From an uncultured Mycoplasmatota bacterium (GTDB lineage: Bacteria > Bacillota_I > Bacilli_A > RF39 > UBA660), in assembly GCA_946639185.1 (NCBI GenBank), contig CAMPBR010000003.1, positions 1 to 48,303 on the forward strand: a DNA stretch of 48,303 nucleotides, in the 5' to 3' direction. The translations under genes were made by a program, and so were the position numbers. Within the stretch, counting starts at the first letter, position 1. Each line of letters starts with the position of its first letter. The notes under the pieces were generated by a model. That model saw nothing but the letters and a program-made list of their open reading frames with translations, was not told the origin of the DNA and searched no databases. Shown here one piece after another: positions 2,652 through 42,161 of the stretch.

Positions 2652-2673
2652 ACCATCATCTCCAATCACCAAG

Positions 2674-16571: not shown

Positions 16572-16597
16572 TAAAAAAAGTAGGAATTATTCCTACT
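16572..16597 (-). terminator. Terminator of the tyrS / 541-aa protein unit
   Basis: Stem AGTAGGAA/TTCCTACT (16579..16586 / 16590..16597) overlapping the TAG stop, with a U-run on the minus transcript. Confidence 0.65.
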
Positions 16598-18218
16598 TTG
16601 TATATATAAGTTTAAATCTTTTATTTAATTTAATTAATTCTCCAAAATAATCTTTTCCATTACTTCTAGAAGTTATAGCATTACCATTATTACTATTACT
16701 ATAACCAACTACATAGAAACTAATACCATCAGTTGCTATATTAGTTAGATTATCATTATTAGAACCACCTAATACTTCTTTCTTTAAAATATTACCATTA
16801 ATATCATATCTAACAATTAAACCAGTCATTTCATTTTTATTATCATTAATTACTTTTAAACCAGCATCAAGACTACAAATATGACCAACTACATAAAAGT
16901 TATTTTGATATAACATAATTGAATTATATCTTTCAAAACCACTTCCACCAAAGCTCTTTTCAAAAATAATATTTCCATCTAAATCATATTTTACTAAAAC
17001 AGCATCAGTATCTGAAGTAGTTCTATCATCTTCATCAGTAGTTCCAGGAGGAAGTATCTTTTTAGATCCTACAGCGTATAAATAATTATCTAAATAAGCA
17101 ACTCCACCAAAGCCAAAACTATCAGTGTATCCATAATTTTTATGCCAAAGATATTCACCATCAGCACTAAATTTAACTAAATTAGCATAATCAGCTCCAT
17201 CTTTACCAACTGCATATATACTGTTATCACTAGTAACAACAAAATCAGTAAAATTACCAGATTTAGTACCACCATGATTATTATGCCATAACTCGTTACC
17301 TTCTTTGTCATATTTAACGATAATAGCTCCACCTGTAGTATGATTACCAAGTTCATTATTAGCATAAATACTTTGACCAACTACAATATATCCATCACTA
17401 GTTTCCTTTACTTTATTAAATGATGTATCAGTTAAGACTTGATAAAACTTTTCCCAAATTAATTCACCATCTTTATCATATTTTAAAATAAAAGCTTCTT
17501 TTCCTTCATTTTTCTTTTCTTCTTCACTAAATATACCAGTACCAACTACGATATATCCATCACCGATAGAAATAATAGAATTAAATGTAGTAGCTATACC
17601 TTTATCATAAACCTTTTCAAATACAATATCTCCATTTAGAGTATATTTAATAATTTTACCATGAGAATTATGCTTATACTTAGTTAAACTATCATTTTTA
17701 AAATCACTATTACCTACAACAACAATACTTCCATCATCACTTATTACACTAGTATAACTATCATGATGAACAGCATCTTTTAAAATTGTATGTTGGGAAA
17801 CTAGAATAATACCTTCAACTAAAATAATAAAAAAGCATATTATACTTACTAAAACTAAATATTTAATACATTTAGGAGAATTATGAAACCATTTTATTAA
17901 TTCTTTCTTTTTATTTAAAAATATCTTTTTTAAACTCTCAAATTCTTGTTTAATATTAGATTTTTCAATAACTACTTCTTTTTTAGATACTACTTCATTT
18001 TCTATTTTAGCAGTCTTATCTACCTTTTTTTTAGTAACAGTAGTATTTGTTACTTTCTTATTTATATTTTTATTAGAAGTTACTTTAACATTAGTATTCT
18101 TCTTTTTAGTATTAACAGTATTCTTCTTAGTTTTAGAATTATTATTCTTTTTAGTAACAGTAGTATTCTTTTTAGTATTCTTTTTACTTTTTGAATTAGA
18201 CTTTGTCTTCGTAGCCAT
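16593..18218 (-). CDS. Membrane-anchored protein with a Lys/Asn/Thr-rich N-terminal tail, one TM helix and about 7-8 beta-propeller-like repeats
   Basis: 541 aa. The N-terminal ~90 aa are KKNT/TVTKK low complexity, followed by the TM segment LVLVSIICFFIILVEGIILV. A recurring ~45-aa unit then follows: DG(Y/S)I(V/Y)VG ... (V/I)(V/K)YD..G...W. Confidence 0.6.
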   Translation of the reverse strand: MATKTKSNSKSKKNTKKNTTVTKKNNNSKTKKNTVNTKKKNTNVKVTSNKNINKKVTNTTVTKKKVDKTAKIENEVVSKKEVVIEKSNIKQEFESLKKIFLNKKKELIKWFHNSPKCIKYLVLVSIICFFIILVEGIILVSQHTILKDAVHHDSYTSVISDDGSIVVVGNSDFKNDSLTKYKHNSHGKIIKYTLNGDIVFEKVYDKGIATTFNSIISIGDGYIVVGTGIFSEEEKKNEGKEAFILKYDKDGELIWEKFYQVLTDTSFNKVKETSDGYIVVGQSIYANNELGNHTTGGAIIVKYDKEGNELWHNNHGGTKSGNFTDFVVTSDNSIYAVGKDGADYANLVKFSADGEYLWHKNYGYTDSFGFGGVAYLDNYLYAVGSKKILPPGTTDEDDRTTSDTDAVLVKYDLDGNIIFEKSFGGSGFERYNSIMLYQNNFYVVGHICSLDAGLKVINDNKNEMTGLIVRYDINGNILKKEVLGGSNNDNLTNIATDGISFYVVGYSNSNNGNAITSRSNGKDYFGELIKLNKRFKLIYTK

Positions 18219-19490: not shown

Positions 19491-19690
19491 AAACAAAAAA
19501 GATAGTACCCCAAAGGACGAATTCTCGTGGTACCACCTTACTTTATACTCTAAAACTATAACGCGTCACCGGTTTAACTCCAAACTGTGTATTTCATTAA
19601 AATATCTTGATTTGTTTCCACCACCACAAATTCTCTTATTACCAATATTTTAACTACTAAATAGTTCTTCTTCATTAAATCTAATAAGTA
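19491..19690 (-). promoter_or_regulatory. T-box riboswitch leader, Tyr specifier
   Basis: On the minus strand the T-box sequence AAGGTGGTACCACG lies at 19539..19526, followed by a terminator helix and U-run (19495..19500). A GAAA-UAC-A specifier-loop candidate places UAC at 19591..19589. An AGAGA box lies upstream. Confidence 0.8.
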
Positions 19691-22286: not shown

Positions 22287-22354
22287 AACTCACCTACTCT
22301 TTAATTATTATAACAAACTTTAGAAAAATGATAAAGTTTTTTATAAATTTTTAC

Positions 22355-22385
22355 ATAAAAAGAAAAAGACTATACAATATAGTCT
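22355..22385 (-). terminator. Terminator of the secreted-protein operon (locus A)
   Basis: Stem AGACTATA/TATAGTCT (22367..22374 / 22378..22385) with a U-rich tail on the minus transcript. Confidence 0.7.
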
Positions 22386-22408
22386 AATTATCAGAAAGCA
22401 AAAAAAGT

Positions 22409-23290
22409 CTAAGATAATTTATACAATGAATATTGCCATGGATTCAATTGAGAAATCGTACAACTTCTAGGAGCAAAAATAACTCCTATGACATTAAATT
22501 TCTGATAATACGTCCCATAATCAGTTTCTCCCCAATAAGTATCAGTTTCATATAGAGAAACAAAATAGGCATCATTATCCAATTTGGGATAGAAATTAGT
22601 ATATCGTACATTACTAGTACTGTCATACCATGAACGCCAAATATAAATGCCATAATCTGCGTTATAAGATTGACTCGAACCACCTTGATTATTTTTACTT
22701 GACACTAATGAAGCTGAAGTATAATTTGCTGATGTTAAACCAGAAGAAACATTTATTGCATTTGAATAATAACCAGATGGAATAGTAATTTTAGATCCAC
22801 CATCTAAAATTAAATCAGAATTATTTAAAGTAACATTTGTGCTACTGGTAGTTACTGTTGTTCCACTTGTTGCAGCGGTTCCTCCAACGCCTTTTGGATT
22901 ATAATTAATCCCTGTATTAAAACTTGAATTTGCTGTATAATAGCCACTATTTACTGGCTTTACATATAACTTATTGCTTGTATTAGCTTTAGTACAGGTT
23001 TGTGCAGTTGAAGAACTATAATCATTCATCGTACCAGTTAATAATTGACCACTTGAAAATGCAGTCTTACCAGTTAATATATCTCCAGTTATAGCATTAC
23101 CTGATGTATGTATAGAATAAAGTTCATTGATAGCAGCTTCTACTGTTGTAGTTGTACCATTAGCTTTTACATGGACAACATCACCACTAGCAAACGATAT
23201 ACCTGAAGCATATACACTTATTCCAGAAACAACTATTCCTAATATGAATGCTGCAAATACTTTTAAATTATTTTTAATAAATTTCTGCAT
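22409..23290 (-). CDS. Secreted modular protein A1: constant N-terminal 184 aa, unique Trp/Tyr-rich C-terminal module
   Basis: 293 aa. Signal peptide ...GISVYA/SG. Motifs TTTVEAAINELYS, DILTGKTAFSSGQLLTGTM and ITIPSGYYSNAINVSSG. GGAGGTGGAAGT RBS. Confidence 0.8.
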   Translation of the reverse strand: MQKFIKNNLKVFAAFILGIVVSGISVYASGISFASGDVVHVKANGTTTTVEAAINELYSIHTSGNAITGDILTGKTAFSSGQLLTGTMNDYSSSTAQTCTKANTSNKLYVKPVNSGYYTANSSFNTGINYNPKGVGGTAATSGTTVTTSSTNVTLNNSDLILDGGSKITIPSGYYSNAINVSSGLTSANYTSASLVSSKNNQGGSSQSYNADYGIYIWRSWYDSTSNVRYTNFYPKLDNDAYFVSLYETDTYWGETDYGTYYQKFNVIGVIFAPRSCTISQLNPWQYSLYKLS

Positions 23291-23338
23291 ACTTCCACCT
23301 CCTTAATATTCATATAACTCATTTAAAGCGTATTCAAC
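22739..23338 (-). repeat. Direct repeat A, copy 1 (~600 nt): 48 nt of upstream sequence plus the first 552 nt of the CDS
   Basis: Aligns to 23720..24319 at a constant offset of 981 nt. The stretch 22824..22969 reads identical to 23805..23950. There are 15 amino-acid differences in 184 residues by my count. Confidence 0.85.
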
Positions 23339-23359
23339 TATTTGAATACACTAATTCAT

Positions 23360-24271
23360 TCATTTTAAACCACATATTTTTATTGGTATAGTGTTATTAT
23401 TAAATATACCAGTCGCATTTCTTTTCGTTGCAGCCGCTATCCTTACAGTTGTATCATTTACTTTAATAATTATACGTTCATACCATGCTGATGTATCTTT
23501 AGCGGTAATCATCCATCCTACCATATTATTCGTCTCTGTCTGAAATTCATCCAAAGGAATAAGCATACTACCATCATTATCACCTGATGTACTTACACGG
23601 CTATAGACCTTTAAGTATTTATAATTGTTAATACTATCAGAAAGTGGAACATCTTGTGCTGCAAAAGTAACAGTAGGACTTGAATTTGTCCATAATACTG
23701 TTTCAGATAATGCTACATTTCCAGATGAAACATTTATTGTATCAGAATAATAACCTGCAGGAATCGTGATTTTAGTTCCAGCCTCCAAAATTAAATTAGA
23801 ATTGTTTAAAGTAACATTTGTGCTACTGGTAGTTACTGTTGTTCCACTTGTTGCAGCGGTTCCTCCAACGCCTTTTGGATTATAATTAATCCCTGTATTA
23901 AAACTTGAATTTGCTGTATAATAGCCACTATTTACTGGCTTTACATATAATTCATTACTTGTATTAGCTTTAGTACAGGTTTGTGCAATTGAAGAACTAT
24001 AATCATTCATCGTACCAGTTAATAATTGACCATTTGAAAATGCAGTCTTACCTGTTAATATATCTCCAGTTGTAGCATTACCTGATGTATGTATAGAATA
24101 AAGTTCATTGATAGCAGATTCTACTGTTGTAGTTGTACCATTAGCTTTTGTATGAGCAACATCACCACTAGCAAACGATATACCTGAAGCATATACACTT
24201 ATACCAGAAACAACTATTCCTAATATGAATGCTGCAACTACTTTTAAATTATTTTTAATAAATTTCTGCAT
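23360..24271 (-). CDS. Secreted modular protein A2: same constant N-terminal module, different C-terminal module
   Basis: 303 aa. The first 184 aa are nearly identical to A1. The C-terminal ~120 aa (VLWTNSSPTVTFAAQDVPLSDSINNYKYLKVY...) are unrelated to A1. Confidence 0.8.
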   Translation of the reverse strand: MQKFIKNNLKVVAAFILGIVVSGISVYASGISFASGDVAHTKANGTTTTVESAINELYSIHTSGNATTGDILTGKTAFSNGQLLTGTMNDYSSSIAQTCTKANTSNELYVKPVNSGYYTANSSFNTGINYNPKGVGGTAATSGTTVTTSSTNVTLNNSNLILEAGTKITIPAGYYSDTINVSSGNVALSETVLWTNSSPTVTFAAQDVPLSDSINNYKYLKVYSRVSTSGDNDGSMLIPLDEFQTETNNMVGWMITAKDTSAWYERIIIKVNDTTVRIAAATKRNATGIFNNNTIPIKICGLK

Positions 24272-24319
24272 ACTTTCACATCCTTAATATTCATATAACT
24301 CATTTAAAGCGCATTCAAC
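23720..24319 (-). repeat. Direct repeat A, copy 2
   Basis: See copy 1. It includes the last 11 codons, the stop and the RBS region of the upstream 400-aa gene (24272..24319). Confidence 0.85.
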
Positions 24320-25486
24320 AGTAGTACAGGTTGTATAATTACTATTTGAATACTCTAACATTGCAGATGTTAATCTTGACCATTTAGCATAAAATACTTT
24401 ATTACCCCTAGAACCTTTATTAATTCGTGTTACAACGCTTCCAGTAAAATCAGAAGTTGTATGCCATCCTTCAAATACATACCCCTGGTATGTTGGTTCT
24501 AATAAATCAAAACTTGGTGTTTCAACATTATAACTTGTTACTGCATCTTCTCCTAATGTTCCACCATTTAAAACATAAGTTATAGAATACTCAGTATTAT
24601 CATAATATACTATTTCTGGATTACTCCAACTTGATTTTAAATTATCACTAGTTACCGCACGATAGTAAATATAATTTTGCCCAATTCTGATTACATTATA
24701 AGAGTCCATTGTCGTACCTGTAGCTATCGTTAAATCATTCGGTATATCATCACTATCATCTGCCACATAATATTCATAAGTTACTCCTCCAATTGCAGGT
24801 GTTGTTGGTACTAAACTTATTGTCTGTAGCTCTGTTGTCCAAATCATTCCAGTTCCTCCCGTAATTACAGGAGTTGGAATAGAAGCATCTACCATGCTAT
24901 AATCACTTTTAGAATTAACATTTACTCTAAAACTACCACTTGTTCCCATATATTCATTTGTATATATATTTACATCTTCACCTATCCACATTCTAACTCT
25001 AAAATTTTTTTCATAATTTTTAGTATTTTTTATAATTCTTTCTTGATAAATAACGTAATTTTCATAATCAGTTAAATATTTAACTTTACCTAGCCCATTA
25101 AAATTACTACTAATTTCTCTTTCTCCGCCATCAACTAATTCCGTAATATATATCTTTAATCCACTTAAATTAATAGTAGTATTAATTAATGGTTCTATGC
25201 TTACTTCATAAACCATGTCACTACCAATTAAATTAGATTCTATTTTAAAATCAAAATAATTATCTAATACTTTTCCTTCACTATCCGAAATAACATCACT
25301 GATATCTAGATTAATACCATTACCAATACCTGATACTTCCGTATATTTGAAATTTATATCACCACTTCTAATGCTAACAAGACCACTACCATTTTTTATA
25401 GCACTAAAAATCGCAACACTAACTCCAAGTGTTGCTAACAACAAAAAAGATATAATTGTAAGTAAAACTAAAGTTTTTCTTTTCAT
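24284..25486 (-). CDS. Secreted protein with a TasA/SipW-like signal region and a Listeria-Bacteroides repeat (Flg_new) domain
   Basis: The start is ATG 25486 (GGAG RBS). MKRKTLVLLTIISFLLLATLGVSVAIFSAIKNGSG resembles SipW-dependent signals (GGTFAFFSD). YSITYVLNGGTL...PTYQGYVFEGWHT...VFYAKW is a clear Flg_new repeat. The C-terminus is TTVECALNELYEY. Confidence 0.75.
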   Translation of the reverse strand: MKRKTLVLLTIISFLLLATLGVSVAIFSAIKNGSGLVSIRSGDINFKYTEVSGIGNGINLDISDVISDSEGKVLDNYFDFKIESNLIGSDMVYEVSIEPLINTTINLSGLKIYITELVDGGEREISSNFNGLGKVKYLTDYENYVIYQERIIKNTKNYEKNFRVRMWIGEDVNIYTNEYMGTSGSFRVNVNSKSDYSMVDASIPTPVITGGTGMIWTTELQTISLVPTTPAIGGVTYEYYVADDSDDIPNDLTIATGTTMDSYNVIRIGQNYIYYRAVTSDNLKSSWSNPEIVYYDNTEYSITYVLNGGTLGEDAVTSYNVETPSFDLLEPTYQGYVFEGWHTTSDFTGSVVTRINKGSRGNKVFYAKWSRLTSAMLEYSNSNYTTCTTVECALNELYEY

Positions 25487-25535
25487 ATATATCTCCATTT
25501 AAATCATCAAATTGTTATCGTCTATTGTTAATATA

Positions 25536-25564
25536 ATTTTATAATATATTTAGTATCGTGTCAA
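25536..25564 (-). promoter_or_regulatory. SigA-type promoter of the locus A operon
   Basis: On the minus strand: TTGACA (25564..25559), 17 nt, TAAAAT (25541..25536). Confidence 0.6.
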
Positions 25565-26534: not shown

Positions 26535-27815
26535 ATGAAGTTTATTACAGATATAGAAAAAGATAGATATGAAGAATTTGTAAAGAATCATAAAAAGAGT
26601 CATTTCCTACAAAGCTATGCTTGGGGAGAATTTGCTCAAAAAGAAAAAAATCTAATACCACACTATGTTGGTCTAGAAGATAATGACAAACTAGTAGCAA
26701 CTGCTCTTATTCTAGAAAAAAAATTACCTTTAAACTTATCTTATTTCTATATACCTCGTGGTTATGTATTAGATTATGATAATTTAGATATATTAAAATG
26801 CTTTACTAAAAATATAAAAGATTATGCAAAAAAATATAAAGCTATATTCATTAAAATAGATCCTGATAATATTTATCACGAAGAAGATAATAATGGTAAT
26901 ATTATTAAAGATAATAATAATGAACTAGTTAAAAATTTAAAATCTCTAGGTTACAAACATCTAGGATTTACTAAAAACTTTGAAACAATGCAACCTAGAT
27001 ATACTTTTAGAATAAATATGGACAAACCTTATGAAGAAATAGAAAATAATTTTTCTAAGACTACTAAACAAAGAATCAAAAAAGCTAATGATTTAGATGT
27101 TAGTGTTAGAATTGGTAATGAAAATGATATTAATTCATTCTATAATTTAATGATTCTAACAGAAAATAGAAAAGATTTTATTACTCATAATGAACAATAT
27201 TATAAGTCTTTATATGAAATATGGAATAAAGATAATTCATGTAATATCTTTTTAGGAAGTGTTGATTTAGATAAAATAATTAATATTTTAGATAAAAAGA
27301 AAATTGAATTAGAAAGTGAATTAAACCTTCTTCCTAAAGAGGATTTATCTAAATCTCAAAAATCTAAAAAAGCAGAATTAGAAAGACAATTAGAAAAAAC
27401 TAATAGTGACATAGAAAAATATTCAAATAGTAAAAAAGAATACGGTTCTAATATCATATTATCTGCTCACTTTATAATTGAATATGGTAATACTGCTTGG
27501 GTATTATATGCTGGAAATCATAATATTTTATCTGAAACTTATACAAATTATAAAACTTATGAAGAACATATTAAGTATTATTATAATAAAGGTATTAAAA
27601 CTTATGATCAATTTGGAACTATTGGTGACTTAAGAAAAGATAATCCACTACTTGGACTTCATGAATTTAAGAAAAAGTTTGGTGGAAACTATGTTGAATT
27701 TTGTGGAGAATTCGATCTTATAACTAATAAACTTATGTATTTTATATTTACTAAACTGGTACCTATTTATAGAAATATAATTAAGAAAAATGCTAAAAAG
27801 AAAAGAGGTAAATAA
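26535..27815 (+). CDS. FemAB-family peptidoglycan interpeptide-bridge aminoacyltransferase (1 of 3)
   Basis: 426 aa. HFLQSYAWGEF, YIPRGYVLDY, a coiled-coil insertion, and ...LHEFKKKFGG typical of FemX/FemA/FemB. Confidence 0.85.
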   Translation: MKFITDIEKDRYEEFVKNHKKSHFLQSYAWGEFAQKEKNLIPHYVGLEDNDKLVATALILEKKLPLNLSYFYIPRGYVLDYDNLDILKCFTKNIKDYAKKYKAIFIKIDPDNIYHEEDNNGNIIKDNNNELVKNLKSLGYKHLGFTKNFETMQPRYTFRINMDKPYEEIENNFSKTTKQRIKKANDLDVSVRIGNENDINSFYNLMILTENRKDFITHNEQYYKSLYEIWNKDNSCNIFLGSVDLDKIINILDKKKIELESELNLLPKEDLSKSQKSKKAELERQLEKTNSDIEKYSNSKKEYGSNIILSAHFIIEYGNTAWVLYAGNHNILSETYTNYKTYEEHIKYYYNKGIKTYDQFGTIGDLRKDNPLLGLHEFKKKFGGNYVEFCGEFDLITNKLMYFIFTKLVPIYRNIIKKNAKKKRGK

Positions 27816-29113
27816 TGGAGTTTACAGAATTAACTAGTGAAGAATTTTTAAATTTTACTAAAAATCATGAACAAGTATCTTTTTACCAAACACTAAATTG
27901 GGGTAATCTTAAAAGAGAAAACGGATGGTTATCTCATTTAGTTGGAGTTAAAAAAGATGGTAGTGTTGTCGCAGCAAGTTTAATTTTATCAAAAGAAATT
28001 AAATTTGGTAAAAAAATGTTTTATGCTCCTCGTGGATTTATATTAGACTATAATGATTATGATTTATTAAAATTCTTTACTAAAAATATAAAAGAATATG
28101 CTAAAAGACGTGGCGCAATCTTTATTAAAATAGATCCATATATTTCTTATCAAGAAAGAGATTTAGAAGGAAATATCGTTCCAAATGGTAAAAACAATAA
28201 ACAAGCTTATGATAATTTAATTAAACTTGGATATAAACATTTTGGATTTAACTTAATGCAAGAAAGCTTACAACCTCGTTGGATATTTATAACTCCTTCT
28301 AAAAATACTACTGTTGAAGAAGTTATGAAAAATATGGATGCTAAAACAAGACAAATTTTAAGAAAAAATGAAAGAAATAAAATTAAAGTAAGAGAAATTG
28401 GTTATGATGAATTAAATAAATTTAAAGATATTATGGCTCATACTGGTGAAAGAAGAGAATTTATTGATAGACCTCTTTCATATTACCAAGAAATGTATAA
28501 ACATCTACACGATGATGGAATATTAAAAATATTAATTGCAGAACTTGATACAAATGAACTTATTAATGAATATCAAAATGAAATAGATAACTTAAAGAAA
28601 GAAAAAGAAGATAGAGCTAATAAATATAATCAAGATCCAGCCAAAATGAATGAGCAAAAGTATCGTGAAAAACAAGCTTTTTGTGATAAAGAAATAGAAA
28701 GAATTAATAAAACACAAAATCATATTAGAGATTTAAAATTAAAATATGGAAATGTTATTACTTTAGGTGGAATCTTATTCTTAATATATGGAAATGAAGT
28801 ATTATCATTAGTTGGAGGTTCTTATAAAGACTTTATGGAATTCCAATCTGCATATACTGTTCATTTTGCAGGATTAAAATATGCGATTGAAAATAACTAT
28901 GAAAGATATAATTTCTATGGTATAACAGGAGTATTTGATAAAGAAAACCCATTATTTGGATTATATTCATTTAAAAGAGACTTTGGTGGTAAAGTAGTAG
29001 AACTTATTGGAGAATTTGATTTAGTTATTGATAAACCTATGTATTCAATATATAAGTTAGCATTTAAAACATATAAAAAATTAAAAAATTTAAAAAATCA
29101 TATAAGAAACTAA
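27815..29113 (+). CDS. FemAB-family aminoacyltransferase (2 of 3)
   Basis: 432 aa. SFYQTLNWGNL, YAPRGFILDY, a coiled-coil arm, LYSFKRDFGG. Its start overlaps the stop of the previous fem gene. Confidence 0.85.
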   Translation: MEFTELTSEEFLNFTKNHEQVSFYQTLNWGNLKRENGWLSHLVGVKKDGSVVAASLILSKEIKFGKKMFYAPRGFILDYNDYDLLKFFTKNIKEYAKRRGAIFIKIDPYISYQERDLEGNIVPNGKNNKQAYDNLIKLGYKHFGFNLMQESLQPRWIFITPSKNTTVEEVMKNMDAKTRQILRKNERNKIKVREIGYDELNKFKDIMAHTGERREFIDRPLSYYQEMYKHLHDDGILKILIAELDTNELINEYQNEIDNLKKEKEDRANKYNQDPAKMNEQKYREKQAFCDKEIERINKTQNHIRDLKLKYGNVITLGGILFLIYGNEVLSLVGGSYKDFMEFQSAYTVHFAGLKYAIENNYERYNFYGITGVFDKENPLFGLYSFKRDFGGKVVELIGEFDLVIDKPMYSIYKLAFKTYKKLKNLKNHIRN

Positions 29114-29140
29114 AAAAGAGTGGATATTATCCACTCTTTT
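29114..29140. terminator. Bidirectional terminator between convergent fem operons
   Basis: Stem AAGAGTGGAT/ATCCACTCTT (29116..29125 / 29129..29138), flanked by an A-run and a T-run. Confidence 0.8.
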
Positions 29141-29143
29141 ATT

Positions 29144-29647
29144 TTATCTAATTGTAAAAAATATAATTGCACTAATTGCTAAGATAATCATACTAGCTAC
29201 TACTGTAGTTAAAAAGAATAAATCACTTGTACCTTTATTCATCATATTAAGTAAGTTTATCTTAAACATATCTTTATCTTTATTTTGCTTAGATACCATT
29301 ACACCTTTGTAAGCAGTAAGTTCAGATCTATGCCCTTCTTCCAATATATCTTCAGGAGTTATATTAGTTAAAAGTATAACTTTTTTATCTAAATAAACAG
29401 TATAGTGAAGAGTAATAGTACCATGAACTTTTTCAAACATCTTATCAGTAGGAAGTGGAAGCTCATACATAATACTACCATCTTTATTTTCACCCACTGC
29501 TTTACCTAAAAACTCACCAGTTTTTAGTTTAGGATAGTATTTGAAAGTCATTTCTTTGTATGCAAGCATATTATATTTTCTGACAGTTCTTTCTTTTACT
29601 CGGAAATCATTTTCATTTAAATATTCAAAAACAAAACTATCCTTCAT
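29144..29647 (-). CDS. Hypothetical C-terminally TM-anchored protein coupled to the third fem gene
   Basis: 167 aa. Soluble N-terminal ~135 aa and a C-terminal hydrophobic helix LFFLTTVVASMIILAISAIIFFTI. Its start lies 2 nt after the fem stop. Confidence 0.55.
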   Translation of the reverse strand: MKDSFVFEYLNENDFRVKERTVRKYNMLAYKEMTFKYYPKLKTGEFLGKAVGENKDGSIMYELPLPTDKMFEKVHGTITLHYTVYLDKKVILLTNITPEDILEEGHRSELTAYKGVMVSKQNKDKDMFKINLLNMMNKGTSDLFFLTTVVASMIILAISAIIFFTIR

Positions 29648-29649
29648 AG

Positions 29650-30906
29650 TTACCTCCCTATAATATTTTTTACCCTCTTTAGTAATCTATATACATTATA
29701 AAACAAACTTACCTTTAAGTCAAACTCTCCAATGTATTCTATTACATTTCCATTAAATCCTTTTTTAAATTCATATATTCCATAATATTTACCTTTAGGA
29801 TTAAAATCTCCAGTAATACCATAGAAATTACAGTATTTAAAACCTTCCTTATATGCTTCTTTTATATGATGTTCATACATTAAATACTTAGGTGTAAATT
29901 CTTTATAATCAGCTAAAATCCCACTAGATAAAGTTAAATATTCACATCCGCTTCTTAAAGATAATAAACATCCAATATCTCTTCCGTTAGGATACTCTTC
30001 TTTAAATTTAGTTGCTTTTTCTAATTCTTTTTCATATTTAGCTATTTGTTTTAAAGCAATTTCTTTATCGTTGATTAATTTAGCACCAACCATATTATTC
30101 TGCATTTTTTCTTCTACTTGATTAAGTTTACTCTTAGCTTCACTTAATAAACCCAAAGTATGCTCATAATAAATATCAGGATTTAAATAAGCAATATAAA
30201 TAGTCATTAAATTACTCATATTTTTATACATTTGTTGATAATATTCTAAAGTTCTAGAAAAGAAATCTTTTCTCCTTGAAGTAATTTCAAATATCTCGGT
30301 CATAGTAGCTAAATCATCAATAGTACCCTCTCTTACCATTAAGCCTTTTTTAATACAAGACTCAATATTCTTTCTAGTACTTTTGGAAAACTTCTTTTTC
30401 TTTTCTTCATATTCTTCATCAAGTTCTAATAAATAACACCATCTAGCTTGTTTAGTATCTAAATATAAATTAAATCCATGATGATTATATCCTAATTTTT
30501 TTAAATTATTAATTGCTTCATCATTTTGCCCATTTTCTGGAATAATATCTCCATCACTACTTCTCTTGCGATATATAACATTAGGATCAATAGTTAACAT
30601 AAAACCTTTATGTTTTTTAATATATTTTTTTACTTCATCAGTAAAAAATTTTAATAAATCATAATTATTATAATCAACTATTAAACCACGTGGAGCATAA
30701 AACATTTTTTTATTAAATATTGTTCTATCCTCTAATAATAATGATCCCGCAATTATCTTATCATTTTCTAAGACACCAACATAGTGTTTAATACTACCAC
30801 GTTCTTCTTTTAAATGAGCAAGTTCTGGAGTTTGCATAAAAGAAGAAGAAGGATTATCTTTAATAAATTTTCTAAATTCTTCTTCTGTTAATTCTCTAAA
30901 TTCCAA
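29650..30906 (-). CDS. FemAB-family aminoacyltransferase (3 of 3)
   Basis: SFMQTPELAHL, YAPRGLIVDY, a coiled-coil arm, IYEFKKGFNG. I prefer TTG 30906 as the start (GAGGTGA RBS), which gives M-EFRELTEEEF, parallel to MEFTELTSEEF in paralog 2. Confidence 0.85.
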   Translation of the reverse strand: MEFRELTEEEFRKFIKDNPSSSFMQTPELAHLKEERGSIKHYVGVLENDKIIAGSLLLEDRTIFNKKMFYAPRGLIVDYNNYDLLKFFTDEVKKYIKKHKGFMLTIDPNVIYRKRSSDGDIIPENGQNDEAINNLKKLGYNHHGFNLYLDTKQARWCYLLELDEEYEEKKKKFSKSTRKNIESCIKKGLMVREGTIDDLATMTEIFEITSRRKDFFSRTLEYYQQMYKNMSNLMTIYIAYLNPDIYYEHTLGLLSEAKSKLNQVEEKMQNNMVGAKLINDKEIALKQIAKYEKELEKATKFKEEYPNGRDIGCLLSLRSGCEYLTLSSGILADYKEFTPKYLMYEHHIKEAYKEGFKYCNFYGITGDFNPKGKYYGIYEFKKGFNGNVIEYIGEFDLKVSLFYNVYRLLKRVKNIIGR

Positions 30907-30925
30907 GATAATCACCTCATCTTTC

Positions 30926-32638: not shown

Positions 32639-33556
32639 TTACTTATAAATAGTATTATTATTAAATTTATCTACAATCTCTAATGCTTCACTAGTTAAAC
32701 TTCTAAGTTTATTAATTTTACTTTTTCTAAACCAAATACTATTAGAAAGTTTAATATTTAAATCTAATATTTTTGATAATAATTTTGATAATTTTTGAAA
32801 TGAATTAACTTCACCTGTAATAGTATCAAACCAATTATTTAAATCTTCTATATATCCATCAAATCTTAATTTTTCAAAAGTAGACATAAATGTTTTGTTT
32901 TCAACTAACTTTTTACATACAATAGATTCAAGTAAATAACTATTAGATTTATATCCAGATTGAACACTATGATTAATAGAATATAAAGTATTATTAACTA
33001 CTGTATTATTTATTTTATAATTATTAAAATCTTTAATTATATCAATAATAGATTCTGTTTGTTTTGTATTAATAACTTCTTCTAGGGTTATTTCATCTGT
33101 TTTTTTAATAAAATTTAAATTCTTATCAAATATATTATGACTAATACCAGTTCTAACTCTAACAAATTCATCTTCTATAAGTTCATAATTAATAGAATTA
33201 ACTGCATGATTATATTCATGAACTAAATTATCTAAAAGACCCATTAAAGTAGTATCATCATAATTACGAAGTACTATTCCTTTATTAAAAACAATTTTAT
33301 GTTCACTATTATATTCTGGAACACTAAAATAATAAGCTTGATACATCTTATCAAATTTTTTATCTATTCTAATTGGTGTTTCCATAAAACATTTTTCTAT
33401 TATACTTTTATTATTTACTCCATATTTAATAATAAAAGCTGGAATTATTAAATATAATAAATGTGTTATATTATCTGGATAACGATATTTAAAAGCTAAT
33501 TTATCACTATATTCTATAGCATCTTCCATTAATAAATTTAAATATTCACTATTCAT
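32639..33556 (-). CDS. Hypothetical HExxH metallopeptidase-like protein coupled to dinB
   Basis: 305 aa. LVHEYNHAV provides an HExxH motif. Its start lies 4 nt after the dinB stop. No family recognised. Confidence 0.5.
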   Translation of the reverse strand: MNSEYLNLLMEDAIEYSDKLAFKYRYPDNITHLLYLIIPAFIIKYGVNNKSIIEKCFMETPIRIDKKFDKMYQAYYFSVPEYNSEHKIVFNKGIVLRNYDDTTLMGLLDNLVHEYNHAVNSINYELIEDEFVRVRTGISHNIFDKNLNFIKKTDEITLEEVINTKQTESIIDIIKDFNNYKINNTVVNNTLYSINHSVQSGYKSNSYLLESIVCKKLVENKTFMSTFEKLRFDGYIEDLNNWFDTITGEVNSFQKLSKLLSKILDLNIKLSNSIWFRKSKINKLRSLTSEALEIVDKFNNNTIYK

Positions 33557-37563: not shown

Positions 37564-37592
37564 TTGATAAAAAAATTATACTATGTTAAAAT
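37564..37592 (+). promoter_or_regulatory. SigA-type promoter of secreted-protein gene B1
   Basis: TTGATA (37564..37569), 17 nt, TGT-TAAAAT (extended -10, 37587..37592). Confidence 0.6.
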
Positions 37593-37599
37593 AAAACTA

Positions 37600-37762
37600 G
37601 GTGATAATATGAAGGTGTTTAAGAACCCAATCTTCATGTTTATTCTCGGTGTCTTTATTTCAAATGGGATTATGGTTTTTGCTGAATACGTAATTTCAGC
37701 TGATAAAATTGAGTATTCTACAAATATTTCTGTAAAAGATAAGATTGATGATTTATATACTA
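37600..37762 (+). repeat. Direct repeat B, copy 1 (163 nt): RBS plus the first 51 codons
   Basis: Reads 100% identical to 38390..38552 (offset 790). The flanking sequence on both sides is divergent. Confidence 0.9.
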
Positions 37763-38265
37763 AAGTTAAACCAACTTATACTGGTAGTACAATAGTAAAT
37801 CCTATTACTGGTTCTAATCCACTTATCTTACAAACTGCAGGCAAAATACTAAATAATGATATTACTATCAATCCGATACCAAATAGTTTTACAGATGTAT
37901 CTTTATCAACTATAACTAGTACCGATGATATAATGTCAGGAAAGAAAGCATATAAACCAGATGGTACTCTAATAACAGGTACAGGAAATAAAAGTATTAT
38001 ACAAAATTTCTCAATAGATTCCAATTATAGTAACTCTACATATAAATTTGAATTAGGATTCCAACCTAGTTTAATATACATAGCATGGCAAAATGGTTAT
38101 TGCTGGATATATGTTAATAATAAGCAATATGTATATAATACTACAAATGGTACCGGTTATAATTCATCATTTGATGGTATGATAATAACAAATACTGGTT
38201 TCAATATGAATGTTACCAAATACCAAATACAAGGAATGTCTGGTACAATGTATGTAATGAATTAA
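37609..38265 (+). CDS. Secreted modular protein B1
   Basis: 218 aa from ATG 37609 (GGTGATAAT RBS). Signal peptide ...GIMVFA/EY. Motifs IEYSTNISVKDKIDDLYT and DIMSGKKAYKPDGTLITGT. Unique C-terminal module. Confidence 0.8.
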   Translation: MKVFKNPIFMFILGVFISNGIMVFAEYVISADKIEYSTNISVKDKIDDLYTKVKPTYTGSTIVNPITGSNPLILQTAGKILNNDITINPIPNSFTDVSLSTITSTDDIMSGKKAYKPDGTLITGTGNKSIIQNFSIDSNYSNSTYKFELGFQPSLIYIAWQNGYCWIYVNNKQYVYNTTNGTGYNSSFDGMIITNTGFNMNVTKYQIQGMSGTMYVMN

Positions 38266-38269
38266 AAAA

Positions 38270-38296
38270 GGTTAGTAGAATTTCTACTAACCTTTT
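38270..38296 (+). terminator. Terminator after B1
   Basis: Perfect 10-bp stem GGTTAGTAGA/TCTACTAACC (38270..38279 / 38283..38292) plus TTTT. Confidence 0.8.
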
Positions 38297-38327
38297 ACTA
38301 CGATATTAACAATCTTACCTTTAATAA
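38280..38327 (-). pseudogene. Orphan copy of the leuS 3' end (last 13 codons, the stop, and half of the terminator)
   Basis: 48 nt identical to 39089..39136 (offset 809). The minus strand encodes ...IKGKIVNIVVKG*, the same as the LeuS C-terminus, with no leuS body attached. Confidence 0.85.
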
Positions 38328-38352
38328 TGTTATTTTTTATATTTAATTTAAT

Positions 38353-38381
38353 TTGACTTACTAACAACCATATGCTAGAAT
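38353..38381 (+). promoter_or_regulatory. SigA-type promoter of secreted-protein gene B2
   Basis: TTGACT (38353..38358), 17 nt, TGC-TAGAAT (38376..38381). Confidence 0.6.
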
Positions 38382-38389
38382 TATAGTAA

Positions 38390-38552
38390 GGTGATAATAT
38401 GAAGGTGTTTAAGAACCCAATCTTCATGTTTATTCTCGGTGTCTTTATTTCAAATGGGATTATGGTTTTTGCTGAATACGTAATTTCAGCTGATAAAATT
38501 GAGTATTCTACAAATATTTCTGTAAAAGATAAGATTGATGATTTATATACTA
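38390..38552 (+). repeat. Direct repeat B, copy 2
   Basis: See copy 1. Confidence 0.9.
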
Positions 38553-39040
38553 CTGCCAATAATACTTTAGCAACTAAAGAGCAAACAATATCTACATTAT
38601 CTGGACAAGTTAATTCATTACAAGAAGAACTAGATAGTTTAGAAGATGATATTTCAACTGGAACAAAAGAAATAACAGCAAATGGTCAACAAACATTAGA
38701 TAAATATTATAAAAAAGTTAACGTTAATGTTCCATTAGATATAAAAAGTGGATTAAGTGGAAAAACTAGTTTTGGTCAAAAAGGAGTTAGTTGGAGTGGA
38801 TTTACCGTAAATCATAAATATTTAGCATTATATTCAAGTGTATACTTTGCATATGGAACACAAGCATATTTAAATTCTGGTGCTAAAGATATAGAAATTC
38901 TTGCTTCTACTAGCATTACTAAAAATTCAGTTTGGAATTTATGTTCCGTTATAACATTTACAGCTACTAGTTCTACAGTAAGTTTATATTATGAGGGTTC
39001 AACAGATTATTACTTTATGAAGTTTATTGATATAACCTAA
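38399..39040 (+). CDS. Secreted modular protein B2
   Basis: 213 aa. The first 51 aa are identical to B1. A short coiled coil follows (LSGQVNSLQEELDSLEDDIS), then ITANGQQTLDKYYKKVNVNVP and a unique C-terminal module. Confidence 0.8.
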   Translation: MKVFKNPIFMFILGVFISNGIMVFAEYVISADKIEYSTNISVKDKIDDLYTTANNTLATKEQTISTLSGQVNSLQEELDSLEDDISTGTKEITANGQQTLDKYYKKVNVNVPLDIKSGLSGKTSFGQKGVSWSGFTVNHKYLALYSSVYFAYGTQAYLNSGAKDIEILASTSITKNSVWNLCSVITFTATSSTVSLYYEGSTDYYFMKFIDIT

Positions 39041-39046
39041 TCTATT

Positions 39047-39069
39047 AGAAGGGCTATCCTTCTTTTTTT
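39047..39069 (+). terminator. Terminator after B2
   Basis: Stem AGAAGG/CCTTCT (39047..39052 / 39058..39063) followed by a T-run. Confidence 0.6.
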
Positions 39070-39071
39070 AT

Positions 39072-39102
39072 ACGAAAAAAAGATTAGTATTTCTACTAAC
39101 CT
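39072..39102 (-). terminator. leuS terminator
   Basis: Stem AGATTAGTA/TACTAACCT (39081..39089 / 39094..39102, one mismatch) overlapping the TAG stop, with an A-run on the plus strand (a U-run on the minus transcript). Confidence 0.65.
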
Positions 39103-41501
39103 TTTACTACGATATTAACAATCTTACCTTTAATAACGATTGTCTTTAAAATTTCATTACCATCTGTATATTTCTTAACATTATCGCAAGCTAATGCTTT
39201 TTCTAAAATAACTTCATCACTATCATTAATATTTACATTAATAGTAGCTCTTACTTTACCATTTACTTGAACAGCTATAGTCTTCTCTTCATCAACTAAC
39301 TTAGATTCTTCATAAGTTGGCCAAGTAGATTCACAGAATGGTTTACCTAAATTATATTCTTCATTTAACTCTTCAGTAATATGAGGAGCAACTGGATTTA
39401 ATAAATGTAAGAATGTACGATAATCAGCTTTTGTAATACTATCCATCTTATCCATTGTATTAGATAAAATCATTAATGCTGAAATAGCAGTATTAAATTT
39501 AAGACTATCCATATCCTCTGTAACTTTTTTAACAGTTTTGTGGATATCTTTTTCTAATTCTTTACTATATTCATTATTATCAACAACTTTTTCACCTAAA
39601 CGAACAATCTTATCTAAGAAACGTTTAGCTCCTGCTACACCTTGTTCACTCCATGTAGCTTCTTTTTCATAATCACCAATAAACATTTCATAAACTCGAA
39701 GTGTATCAGCTCCATAAGCATCTACGATTTCATCAGGATTAATAACGTTACCAAGAGATTTACTCATCTTAACGCCACCTTCACCTAAAATCATACCATG
39801 ACTAGCTCTTACTTTAAATGGTTCCTTATTTGGAACTAATCCTTCATTATATAAGAATTGATTCCAGAATCTAGCATAAAGTAAATGACGTGTAGCATGT
39901 TCCATACCACCATTATACCAATCTACTTTTCCCCAATATTCAAGTGCTTCACGAGAAACAAATTCTTTTTCATTATGAGGATCCATATATCTTAAGAAAT
40001 ACCAAGATGAACCTGCCCAGTTAGGCATTGTATCAGTTTCTCTCTTAGCAGGTTTTCCACAATGAGGACAAGTAGTATTTACAAACTCAGGAATACGAGC
40101 AAGTGGACTTTCTCCATCATCAGTAGGCTCATATTCAGCAACATTTGGTAACACTACTGGTAAATCTTTTTCATCTACAGGTACCCAGCCACAATCCTCA
40201 CAATAAACTAGAGGGATTGGCTCTCCCCAGAATCTTTGACGAGTAAAGATCCAATCTTGAAGTTTAAAATTAGTTTTCTTACGACCAATACCCTTTTCTT
40301 CAAGATACTCTATCATCTTATTAATAGAATCTTTTTTATTATCAAATCCATTTAAGAAATCAGAATTAACCATTTCACCATCTTCAGTATAAGCAGCTTT
40401 TGATATATCTCCACCCTTAATTACTTCAATAATATCAATTCCAAATTTCTTTGCGAAATCATAATCTCTAGCATCATGAGCAGGAACAGCCATAATAGCT
40501 CCAGTTCCATAATTCATCATTACATAATCAGAAATATAAATTGGAATTTCTTTTCCATTGACTGGATTAATTGCTGATAATCCATCTAACTTAACACCAG
40601 TTTTATCTTTAACTAATTGCGTACGTTCAAATTCACTTTTCTTATTAGCTTGTTCACGATAATCAATTACTTCATTCATATTCTTAATTAATCCACCATA
40701 TAGATCAATGTAAGGATGTTCAGGAGCAACTACCATAAATGTAACTCCAAATAATGTATCTGGACGAGTTGTATAAATAGTTAACTTTTCATCTACTTGT
40801 TTAAGTTTAAAATCAACTTCAGCACCTGTAGATTTACCTATCCAATTAATTTGAGCAACCTTAGTTTTTTCTTGAAACTCTGTATCATCAAGGCCATCTA
40901 TTAATTGTTGTGCATAATCACTCATTCTAAGAACCCATTGTTCTTTTTCTTTTTGAACAACTTGACTACCACATCTTTCACATACTCCACCACTAGAATC
41001 TTCATTAGATAATCCCATTTTACATTTAGGACACCAATTTATATTCTTTTTAGCCTTATAAGCCATACCCTTTTTAAAGAATTGTAAGAATTGCCATTGA
41101 GTCCATTTATAATATTCAGGATCAGTTGTTGAAAACTCACGTTCCCAATCAAAAGAAATACCTAATCTTTGAATTTGAGCTTTAAATGTTTTAATATTTT
41201 CTTTTACAGCAATACTAGGATGTATATGATTCTTAATAGCATATTGTTCAGCAGGAGCTCCAAATGCATCCCATCCCATTGGGAATAATACATTATATCC
41301 TTGCATTCTCTTTTTACGAGCTAAACTATCAAGAGCAGTATAACTTCTTACATGTCCAACATGAAGACCTGCTCCAGATGGATAAGGAAATTCTACTAAA
41401 TAATAATATTTTTCTTTATTTTTATCAATTTCAGCATGGAAAGTTTTATTATCTTCCCAATACTTTTGCCACTTTTCTTCTAATCTTTTAGTACTTATCA
41501 T
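39096..41501 (-). CDS. leuS: Leucyl-tRNA synthetase
   Basis: 801 aa. HVGH (HIGH) motif, a KMSKS motif (VKMSKS), a CP1 editing domain and a Zn-finger CPKC...CERC. Confidence 0.97.
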   Translation of the reverse strand: MISTKRLEEKWQKYWEDNKTFHAEIDKNKEKYYYLVEFPYPSGAGLHVGHVRSYTALDSLARKKRMQGYNVLFPMGWDAFGAPAEQYAIKNHIHPSIAVKENIKTFKAQIQRLGISFDWEREFSTTDPEYYKWTQWQFLQFFKKGMAYKAKKNINWCPKCKMGLSNEDSSGGVCERCGSQVVQKEKEQWVLRMSDYAQQLIDGLDDTEFQEKTKVAQINWIGKSTGAEVDFKLKQVDEKLTIYTTRPDTLFGVTFMVVAPEHPYIDLYGGLIKNMNEVIDYREQANKKSEFERTQLVKDKTGVKLDGLSAINPVNGKEIPIYISDYVMMNYGTGAIMAVPAHDARDYDFAKKFGIDIIEVIKGGDISKAAYTEDGEMVNSDFLNGFDNKKDSINKMIEYLEEKGIGRKKTNFKLQDWIFTRQRFWGEPIPLVYCEDCGWVPVDEKDLPVVLPNVAEYEPTDDGESPLARIPEFVNTTCPHCGKPAKRETDTMPNWAGSSWYFLRYMDPHNEKEFVSREALEYWGKVDWYNGGMEHATRHLLYARFWNQFLYNEGLVPNKEPFKVRASHGMILGEGGVKMSKSLGNVINPDEIVDAYGADTLRVYEMFIGDYEKEATWSEQGVAGAKRFLDKIVRLGEKVVDNNEYSKELEKDIHKTVKKVTEDMDSLKFNTAISALMILSNTMDKMDSITKADYRTFLHLLNPVAPHITEELNEEYNLGKPFCESTWPTYEESKLVDEEKTIAVQVNGKVRATINVNINDSDEVILEKALACDNVKKYTDGNEILKTIVIKGKIVNIVVKG

Positions 41502-41502
41502 A

Positions 41503-41958
41503 TTATTTCACCTTTTTCTTTCTTCTTATTTTATTTTCTTTTTTAGCCTCTTTTTTACTATCTTTTTCTTTTAACTTTTCTAAATACTTCTTTTCTTTTT
41601 CTAATTCCTTAGAATTATCTTTTGTTTGTTTCTTTTGATAAAACTTACCAAGTAACATAAATGTAATAGCTATAATAGGAATTATTATAATTAAACTAAA
41701 TAATATCTGCCAAATAACTCTACTATCAATTACAGCTACCAAAGTAGCAACCAATGCTACATCAAAACTTGTAACTAATCCAACTATTTTTATAAATTTA
41801 CGATAACTAAATTTATTAACATCTAGCTTATATAAATTTATTAAATAATTAGCTTCACTTGGTACTTTTTCTCCTCTTACAGTTCTTCTAATAAACCATA
41901 CATAATATATACAATATATCAGTATATAATCAAAAATAAACCATCCAAGTATTTCCAT
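41503..41958 (-). CDS. Small membrane protein (about 3 TM helices plus a Lys/Glu-rich tail) co-transcribed with leuS
   Basis: 151 aa with a GGAGG RBS. Its stop TAA lies 1 nt before the leuS ATG, and the leuS RBS lies inside its 3' end. It sits between the Leu T-box and leuS. Confidence 0.6.
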   Translation of the reverse strand: MEILGWFIFDYILIYCIYYVWFIRRTVRGEKVPSEANYLINLYKLDVNKFSYRKFIKIVGLVTSFDVALVATLVAVIDSRVIWQILFSLIIIIPIIAITFMLLGKFYQKKQTKDNSKELEKEKKYLEKLKEKDSKKEAKKENKIRRKKKVK

Positions 41959-41971
41959 AAAACCTCCATAA

Positions 41972-42161
41972 AAAGAAAAAAGGTGATACCTAAAGGACGA
42001 ACATGTCGTGGTACCACCTTATTTTATACTCTAAACTGATATAGGAGTCACCCTAATTCACTCAAAGAAGCAAGTTCATATAAACATTATTATCTACTTA
42101 CACCAACCATAGACTCTCTTCAAATAATTTTTATATTACTACTCTTCCATCAACATGAAAC
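41972..42161 (-). promoter_or_regulatory. T-box riboswitch leader, Leu specifier
   Basis: On the minus strand AAGGTGGTACCACG lies at 42020..42007. The terminator pairs AAGGTGGTACC with GGTATCACCTT and has a U-run (41981..41976). An AGAGAG box is present, and the specifier candidate GAA-CUU-G places CUU at 42074..42072. Confidence 0.8.

Follow-up and report, generated by a model that had tools for sequence, protein, structure and literature searches.

A probable strain-variable adhesin-type locus with exchangeable C-terminal cassettes in an uncultured Mycoplasmatota bacterium

In the fibres of lactococcal and T-even phages, a conserved N-terminal attachment part is joined to an exchangeable C-terminal receptor-binding part. 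CdiA-CT/CdiI of contact-dependent growth inhibition (CDI) and Rhs are polymorphic toxin loci with orphan cassettes, and Neisseria pilE/pilS and the variable surface proteins of mycoplasmas achieve antigenic variation by joining a constant 5′ part to variable 3′ cassettes. Here we describe a locus of three genes, g1, g2 and g3, all on the minus strand of a 48,303-nucleotide (nt) stretch of DNA from an uncultured Mycoplasmatota bacterium (contig CAMPBR010000003.1; hereafter the window, with a G+C content of 26%), in which g2 and g3 share a front module and end in unrelated C-terminal modules (C modules). With some reservation, we read it as probably a strain-variable adhesin-type locus whose diversity comes from replaced cassettes, tandem duplications and gene conversion. 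The first gene, g1 (24284..25486), encodes a predicted surface protein of 400 amino acids (aa). Its open reading frame (ORF) opens at 25498 and is listed as 404 aa, and the most likely start is the ATG at 25486, which has GGAG 7 nt upstream and agrees with the homologues, all of which start at MKRK; with this start, g1 is the 400-aa gene of the initial annotation of this DNA, which was made from the sequence alone. The g2 gene (23360..24271) encodes 303 aa, with the front module in codons 1-184 (24271..23720) and the C module at 23719..23363, and g3 (22409..23290) encodes 293 aa, with the front module at 23290..22739 and the C module at 22738..22412.

The locus resembles phage receptor-binding proteins in having a conserved front at which unrelated C modules are swapped at a fixed junction, in that the g2 module has a homologue in a phage context, and in that a repeat of the form ILxGKTA..G..TGTM...IPAGY(Y/H) found in its proteins also builds long fibre-like proteins; unlike phage fibres, it lies in a chromosomal, housekeeping setting, each gene has a predicted signal peptide and virion genes are lacking. 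With CDI and Rhs loci it shares a constant N-terminus, a hypervariable C-terminus, an additional copy placed after a fragment of the upstream gene and many alleles, whereas immunity genes, toxin domains and a junction of the VENN or PxxxxDPxGL type are all missing and the downstream copy is complete. The likeness to pilE/pilS lies in the constant 5′ and variable 3′ parts and in signs of gene conversion, namely an identical 146-nt tract (p=0.003) in g2 and g3 and a 164-nt tract at a second locus, locus B; in contrast to that system, both copies are full genes with a ribosome-binding site (RBS) and a start codon and are apparently expressed, silent cassettes, an invertase or a repeat-tract switch are lacking, and the variation is seen between strains and not within a clone. 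No partial cassettes matching the front-module profile or a profile of the N-terminal domain of g1 (g1N) were found elsewhere in the window. Finally, g1 resembles the Flg_new/BspA leucine-rich repeat (LRR) surface proteins (internalin B B-repeat) in carrying Flg_new, and one allele of the locus adds BspA-type LRRs; it differs from them in having no known wall anchor and in its N-terminal domain of about 200 aa, which matches no family. In the literature on the Flg_new/BspA-LRR proteins we found no description of an allelic C-terminal cassette system.

The evidence that carries this reading comes from comparison of the window with its relatives, which are short metagenomic contigs (given L-numbers) whose record names suggest ruminant and human gut; eleven of the loci compared came from a scan of JGI metagenomes with a g1 profile, and the same scan with the front-module profile gave no match. 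In L012, the sequence is 99.8% identical to the window from 25504 to 24380 (2 mismatches in 1125 nt) and matches again at 22389..22336; the 1215 nt in between are unrelated to the window and encode part of a 779-aa protein that has another Flg_new as well as BspA-type LRRs (LRR_5, E=2e-52). In L007 and L008, identity is 97% and 91% upstream and 100% downstream, and a 460-nt cassette encodes a fused unnamed module in a protein of 521 aa, while L009 (94-97% upstream, with about 94% in the constant part of g1, and 98.9% downstream) has a 482-nt cassette with an F5/8 type C domain (F5_F8_type_C) in a protein of 524 aa. Homology to the window ends at 24378-24380 in L012, L007 and L009 and resumes at 22389, 22385 and 22373, respectively, and g2 and g3 are absent from L007/L008 and L009. 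Thus, the sequence past the codon that ends ...YAKW is one of at least four alternative cassettes. In this strain the replaceable cassette (22386..24379, about 1990 nt) consists of the 3′ tail of g1 together with g2 and g3, and the part of g1 that is common to all cassette alleles (24380..25486) ends at the Trp codon of ...YAKW. The cassette limits fall at a domain boundary in g1, just past Flg_new, and at a terminator-like hairpin with a T run (22356..22385, minus strand; AGACTATA-TTG-TATAGTCT; -11.5 kcal/mol, z=-3.8), which forms the right-hand boundary common to all the alleles and which a consensus scan overlooked because its stem is AT-rich. Other C-terminal modules, among them Laminin_G_3 and additional Flg_new repeats, are found in related g1-type proteins elsewhere. 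The initial annotation had suggested modular exchange at this place, and the survey of homologous loci agrees, since the two-gene arrangement is not fixed and different cassettes stand between the same boundaries in near-identical strains; the exchanged unit is larger than had been seen then, comprising the g1 tail, g2 and g3 together.

Within this cassette, g2 and g3 are joined by a long direct repeat. A constant-offset comparison and a repeat search showed that 22740..23338 corresponds to 23721..24319 at an offset of 981 nt with 32 differences in 599 nt (94.7% identity), and beyond the repeat the identity is 25-35%, as expected for sequence of 26% G+C. Copy 1 (23721..24319, minus strand) holds the last 36 nt of g1 including the stop codon, the RBS and g2 codons 1-184, and copy 2 (22740..23338, minus strand) holds a fossil of the g1 end, the RBS and g3 codons 1-184. 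The description given in the initial annotation, of a repeat of about 600 nt with that offset, 15 changes in 184 residues, an identical run of 146 nt and 48 shared nt upstream of both ATGs, was reproduced by this self-comparison: there are 11 synonymous and 15 non-synonymous codon differences, and the run at 22824..22969 is the longest in the repeat. Ahead of g2 stands the real g1 end, ...TTVECALNELYEY and a stop, followed by GGATGTG, while ahead of g3 stands VEYALNELYEY with a stop, followed by GGAGGTG. The orphan VEYALNELYEY fragment before g3 and its counterpart VECALNELYEY at the real end of g1 had been recognised correctly, whereas the extent of the fossil had been taken as 36 nt and is in fact longer: this copy of 70 nt (23291..23360, minus strand) takes up all 69 nt between g2 and g3 as well as the final base of the g2 stop codon. 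A gapped alignment traces 23360..23291 to g1 24362..24272, from which it differs in length by an insertion of 2 nt and a deletion of 23 nt, and 23338..23303 still encodes VEYALNELYEY with its stop. Since the entire spacer is derived from g1, the point where the copied unit begins is the g2 stop codon itself, where an AATG is shared, and the g2-g3 pair is a tandem array of units made up of g1 tail, RBS, front module and C module. The conserved second Cys of the g1 tail is Tyr in the fossil, as expected of a dead copy. A weak 11-bp hairpin in the spacer (23327..23352, minus strand; centroid -11.6 kcal/mol, z=-2.4), with no T run after it, arose because the 23-nt deletion took out the loop between two inverted segments that are present in the g1 tail; the change from Cys to Tyr turns a G-U pair of this hairpin into an A-U pair.

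The tandem pair is not an assembly accident, since L003, a contig from a different sample, is 100% identical to the window over 12,012 nt that include both repeat copies. Divergence inside the repeat is a mosaic. Synonymous divergence (dS) is low over codons 1-107 (0.07) and absent from the 146-nt run (permutation p=0.003), and it reaches 0.64 over codons 156-184; there the distance between g2 and g3 is about equal to the distance of each from its counterparts in other organisms; the overall ratio of non-synonymous to synonymous divergence (dN/dS) is 0.34. The initial annotation had taken the duplicated unit to be the tail of the previous gene, the RBS and the constant module, with the 3′ half replaced afterwards. 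That tail, RBS and constant module were copied stands. Duplication followed by replacement is one possible order of events, and the arrival of a second allele or gene conversion fits equally well.

Past codon 184, g2 and g3 are unrelated, as had been stated from the sequence: BLASTP between the two C-terminal halves gave E=15 and no similarity. Only ten proteins in a database of 5.8 billion carry this front module (g2, g3 and P0003-P0010), with front modules 46-92% identical to that of g2, and all ten diverge at one position, directly past ...IPAGYYS.AINVS.G. Their C modules (58-142 aa; 119 aa in g2 and 109 aa in g3) were compared by formal alignment, which found no homology between those of g2 and g3 nor among the ten; aligned pairs did not exceed about 70 residues, and the lowest E-value, 0.005, belonged to a low-complexity G/S/T stretch. 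The C module of g2 is of the type 'VLWTNSSPT...IPIKICGLK' and matches P0011 (E=5.5e-26), P0012 and P0013, as well as P0102 from a 186-protein set, a member of the wider family that joins a different front to a g2-type C module. P0011 has two tandem copies of the g2-type module, adjoins Phage_XkdX and lies upstream of a GH25 lysin. These shared modules reflect transfer and not divergence. Further matches are weak: the g2 C module hits PF23624 ORF68_C at a sub-threshold E=0.0035, and phrog_38337 was hit at E=2e-4. Neither INPHARED (50,697 phage genomes), searched by tblastn with both g2 modules, nor IMG/VR, scanned with the front-module profile, yielded a match. The Trp/Tyr-rich C module of g3 had no relative in any search made. 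Two other comparisons were set aside. A search with eight concatenated C modules was swamped by DnaE, P0004 having a DnaE C-terminus as its last 81 residues, and did not recover the query proteins, so that it is uninformative on the other modules; the similarity of a 183-aa protein of L023 to the g2 C module consists of a 19-aa motif (pairwise E=1e-5) and is not taken as firm evidence. P0004 itself (L010, 1013..1993) is of the HEAD family described below, and its last 81 residues are 58-82% identical to the C-terminus of DnaE (DNA polymerase III alpha) of several genomes, either as a real fusion with a fragment of a neighbouring gene or as a chimera (contig coverage 1.8x).

The front module belongs to a far larger superfamily, as its profile matched 1755 proteins at E<=1e-3 among 1.84 billion representatives of clusters at 50% identity. 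Its sub-parts are a hydrophobic N-terminus ending in (V/T/I)YA, which we take to be a typical signal peptidase I site, a motif that we call HEAD (V.Y......T.V..A(L/I).(D/E)LY), modelled with low confidence in g2 as two short strands and a helix, and repeats of the form G.A.A..IL.GKTA...G..(I/L)TGTM ... IPAGY(Y/H). Up to 20 such repeats per protein occur in fibre-like proteins of 1000-1500 aa without a signal peptide, and P0111 combines them with a canonical type IV pilin in one protein. In Pfam, g3 and seven of the ten superfamily members scanned had no family match at all, and g2 and the other three gave weak matches only, either below the cut-offs or with no qualifying domain; among PDB sequences the sole listed match to the front module was a mitochondrial ribosomal protein at E=0.63, a chance match. 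The constant module had been described as an export module, which is right in so far as it holds a predicted signal peptide and too narrow in that it also holds the HEAD motif and fibre-type repeats.

The same organisation recurs at locus B (37564..39153, plus strand), where two tandem genes of the superfamily have likely ATGs at 37609 and 38399. A broad HEAD profile built from 93 sequences gave E-values of 8e-39 for g2, 8e-38 for g3, and 5e-12 and 4e-11 for the locus B pair. The two loci are thus paralogous, and the parallel drawn between them in the initial annotation is real. At locus B, 37599..37762 and 38389..38552 are identical over 164 nt (10 nt upstream and 51 codons, which cover the predicted signal peptide and the HEAD motif) and differ thereafter; each gene is followed by a similar stretch of 69 nt (88% identity), which after the second gene is the real 3′ end of leuS and after the first is a copied fragment of that end (38276..38344). 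In L001, a truncated copy of 86 aa stands behind a full HEAD gene, and the two have sequence in common from only about 15 nt before the ATG onwards. In L006 (93..3246), the tandem pair consists of g1-type genes of 594 and 598 aa; 1225 nt, about 60 of them upstream, are 91% identical between the two, which end in different C-terminal modules. These independent tandem duplications with differing end points bear out the suggestion that a recurrent mechanism, rather than an accident, was seen at the two loci. At the site syntenic to the L006 pair, L001 has a TAIL-ending g1 gene (TAIL is defined below), the HEAD gene and the truncated 86-aa HEAD copy.

The g1 protein consists of an N-terminal hydrophobic anchor or signal (MKRKTLVLLTIISFLLLATLGVSVAIFSA), the beta-rich g1N domain, an FN3-like segment, one Flg_new and a 31-aa C-terminal TAIL. 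The assignment of Flg_new (PF09479) to residues 304-372 is well above threshold (E=7e-12, 45.7 bits against a cut-off of 27), as is the match to TIGR02543 (36.7 bits against a cut-off of 20.95), and the PDB relatives of this segment are InlB B-repeats only. The g1N domain matched no family in Pfam, NCBIfam or PDB, and no LPXTG, GW, SLH or other known wall anchor was found in g1. A TasA/SipW-like or divergent pilin origin of the g1 N-terminus was considered and found no support in Pfam, NCBIfam or PDB sequences: the TIGR04088, PF12389, Peptidase_M73, SipW-signal and N_methyl models gave no match in the window proteins, and no TasA or pilin sequence was found in PDB.

TAIL (24287..24379, minus strand; SRLTSAMLEYSNSNYTTCTTVECALNELYEY) is homologous to HEAD and has a CxxxxC pair. 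The HEAD profile matched g1 residues 369-403 (E=1.2e-5 among the 267 ORFs of the window), and therefore the g1 tail is itself HEAD-like, set apart from HEAD by its two cysteines (T.C..V.CA.NELY). TAIL is also present in L001, L002, L005, L010 and L023, and in all six distinct loci (window/L003, L001, L002, L004/L005, L010 and L023/L024) the TAIL-ending gene is followed by a gene for a predicted signal peptide and HEAD. TAIL is carried by proteins of three kinds: those with g1N and Flg_new, the type IV prepilin of L002 (689 aa) and, in L023, a minimal g1N protein of 257 aa. The g1N genes without TAIL (both in L006, and those of L007/L008, L009, L012 and L013-L020) have fused modules and were never followed by a HEAD gene in the DNA examined. 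In L023 both motifs read NVQ.AIDEL and in the window both read TVE.A.NEL, and this matching of TAIL and HEAD residues within each locus hints at co-variation. The nucleotide sequences of TAIL and HEAD agree at no more than about 24 of 36 positions and contain no extended stretch of identity, which rules them out as substrates of DNA-level recombination and places the link between them at the protein level or far in the past. Two further observations concern these g1-type genes. In L004 a GC-rich insert of about 60 nt (1250..1330; …CCGCTCCAGGCGGCGCCTGTG…) breaks the gene just ahead of TAIL, while in L005, which otherwise matches L004, the gene is intact, so that the insert is a misassembly or a small insertion. 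In L002 (1676..7013) and in L013 and L015 (7659..15580), T2SSF and A24 genes lie ahead of the g1-type genes with no ATPase gene in view, and the g1-type protein of L013 and L015 has a g1N-type N-terminus, about 1866 aa and many immunoglobulin-like repeats.

Upstream of g1 lies a promoter-like site (25536..25564, minus strand) with TTGACA, a 17-nt spacer and TAAAAT (11 of 12 consensus positions), which is a consensus match only, such sites being no commoner in the region than in shuffled sequence. That g1, g2 and g3 form an operon and that their products are secreted, as the initial annotation had it, is inferred from this site, the RBSs, the single terminator-like hairpin and the N-terminal hydrophobic segments. 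The chromosomal flanks hold trmB, three FemAB genes and MurJ on one side, and a lipoprotein gene, YtxH, tyrS, rpsD and ezrA on the other. The three FemAB-family genes (26535..30915), of which a tandem pair is on the plus strand and the third on the minus strand, are about 73% similar in nucleotide sequence in patches, and L009 has an additional 164-aa ORF among them. No Rfam family matched the window at gathering thresholds. T-box leaders lie at 19510..19681 (minus strand) upstream of tyrS and at 41956..42035, probably of leuS, with an 80-nt stretch in common at 75% identity; that of tyrS (67.6 bits, E=1.4e-14) is not called at the default threshold because its score is below the Rfam gathering score of 93. 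Elsewhere in the window there are a pair of a RelB antitoxin and a YafQ/ParE-type toxin (2063..2672, minus strand), two ORFs without a Pfam match (16593..18218, minus strand, 541 aa, with short direct repeats inside it at 18025..18191; and 44634..46016, minus strand, 460 aa) and an ORF of 305 aa (32639..33556, minus strand) with a weak UDPGT match only, below the cut-off.

Four other explanations were weighed against a strain-variable adhesin-type locus. Ordinary paralog divergence, that is, a tandem duplication followed by very fast divergence of the C-termini under diversifying selection with no exchange of modules, would account for the exact 981-nt register, for C-terminal halves of similar length (119 and 109 aa) and for the far greater divergence already seen in the last 29 shared codons (dS 0.64), as a gradient predicts, and the structure models are too poor to exclude a common fold. 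We nevertheless regard it as improbable, since identity falls from 82-100% to background within a few codons and at the same position in ten family members, no residual similarity is left between the C halves (E=15), the g2 C module occurs in proteins with other N-termini, including the phage-context protein (E=5.5e-26), which requires module transfer, and whole-cassette replacement is seen directly between flanks that are 99.8% identical. If instead g2 and g3 were effectors with toxin C-termini in a polymorphic-toxin locus of the CDI or Rhs type, with g3 as an orphan cassette for C-terminal displacement, then the constant N-terminus and hypervariable C-terminus, the fragment of the upstream gene's conserved end before the downstream copy, a layout typical of CDI and Rhs orphan modules, and the many alleles among close strains would all be as expected. 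We judge this very improbable, given that neither the g2-g3 spacer nor the stretch from g3 to the terminator-like hairpin contains a minus-strand ORF of 40 aa or more, the other minus-strand ORFs there overlapping g3; there is no ORF of immunity size, the 69-nt spacer being wholly g1-derived and the hairpin following right after g3. In addition, neither Pfam nor NCBIfam gave a toxin family for g2 or g3, the domains of other alleles are of binding type (F5/8 type C, BspA LRR; Laminin_G_3 in related proteins), the g2 module resembles one beside phage XkdX, and g3 is complete, with its own RBS, start codon and predicted signal peptide, rather than a promoterless orphan.

That phage-type resemblance might itself mean that g2 and g3 are tail-fibre or receptor-binding genes left by a decayed prophage or tailocin, as the homology of the g2 C module to the tandem modules of P0011 (beside Phage_XkdX and upstream of a GH25 lysin), the weak matches to phrog_38337 (E=2e-4) and PF23624 ORF68_C and the fibre-like look of the long superfamily members without signal peptides would allow. 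The setting, with trmB on one side, genes for a lipoprotein, YtxH and tyrS on the other and no phage gene close by, makes this highly improbable, as do the N-terminal signal or anchor segments of g1, g2 and g3, which virion proteins lack, the lack of a match in the 50,697 phage genomes or IMG/VR, and the non-phage, adhesin-type modules that sister strains hold at the same position. A further reading takes the proteins as subunits of a pilus or fibre of a type IV pilus-like or TasA-like assembly, in which TAIL and HEAD would be polymerisation (strand- or helix-exchange) elements. It draws on the g1-type gene directly downstream of T2SSF (PilC) and peptidase A24 (PilD) genes in L002, L013 and L015, on the L002 protein, which combines a canonical prepilin signal (MNKRGFTLVELL) with the same TAIL, on P0111, which joins a type IV pilin to the repeats, on the g1 N-terminus ...GVSVAIFSA, which by eye resembles a SipW/TasA-type signal, and on the second-ranked Foldseek match for g1, the archaeal bundling pilin 7ueg (TasA-like; probability 0.94, template-modelling score 0.29, E=0.01, non-significant). 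Here, too, we think the explanation unlikely, because the prepilin motif G|FTLxE is lacking in g1, g2 and g3 of the window, no pilB, pilC, pilD or sipW gene occurs within 48 kb and no gene for a signal peptidase lies close by, N_methyl, TasA/Peptidase_M73 and SipW-signal models do not match, PDB gave no TasA or pilin sequence, and the fold match to 7ueg is not significant.

A strain-variable adhesin-type locus thus remains the reading we prefer, and the F5/8 type C and BspA LRR domains of other alleles, the Laminin_G_3 of a related g1-type protein and the phage-context-like module of g2 point to ligand binding or adhesion rather than to toxicity. Several points weigh against this reading or limit it. 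The function of all these proteins is a prediction, and cleavage at VYA|SG and surface location are predicted from sequence only. AlphaFold2 models of g2 (mean pLDDT, the predicted local distance difference test, 38 from a 13-sequence alignment) and g1 (51 from 12 sequences) are too poor for fold assignment, and a Foldseek search of PDB with the g1 model returned nothing below E=4.5e-3. GTDB representative genomes, searched with the front-module and g1 profiles, hold no relative of either. As the g3 C module is without relatives, direct evidence of exchange is confined to the g2 module and the g1 cassettes, and with one strain several orders of duplication, replacement and conversion are possible. 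The similarity of TAIL and HEAD may be an old remnant, and the six loci that combine them come from related organisms, so that common descent or inheritance of the neighbourhood could explain the combination without any physical interaction.

With these limits, the following course of events would fit the strain-variable adhesin-type locus. Alleles would be exchanged by homologous recombination in the conserved flanks, and the g2-g3 pair would have formed either by an illegitimate duplication at AATG microhomology and the subsequent loss of one C module in favour of another, or through the acquisition of a second allele along with the sequence upstream of it. Gene conversion would afterwards have homogenised codons 1-155 and left an older, module-linked divergence in codons 156-184. 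The C modules would act as ligand- or glycan-binding tips, and the secreted g2 and g3 proteins might dock on the C-terminus of g1 through TAIL and HEAD, as a split version of the fused alleles that would give one stalk two specificities. Since neither g2 nor g3 has a recognisable wall anchor, some mechanism of retention is plausible. That TAIL and HEAD form a portable docking pair, by which the carriers capture secreted proteins that begin with HEAD once the signal peptide is cleaved, as swappable tips in a non-covalent 'plug-in adhesin', is a tentative and on balance doubtful proposal. For this docking proposal the cohesin-dockerin system offers an analogy, in which a short conserved motif on an anchored scaffold would similarly hold interchangeable secreted modules, whereas in sequence the two are unrelated.

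We found no description of this family or locus type in the literature. Diversification of surface proteins and fibres by modular recombination is already known as a kind, and the pairing of TAIL with HEAD is the element that could be new; if docking is true, gut and rumen Bacillota would display horizontally swapped binding tips on a fixed stalk, and a large unnamed superfamily would use the system. The locus offers a natural example of the re-tooling of surface specificity in uncultured gut or rumen bacteria, with boundaries resolved to the base and one gene end swapped among four cassettes in backgrounds up to 99.8% identical, and the analysis defines a superfamily of at least 1755 clusters at 50% identity that has no Pfam model. 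Loci of this kind serve strain-resolved metagenomics as markers of strain identity and account for breaks in contigs, and for microbiome ecology they are candidate determinants of attachment to substrate, host or phage.

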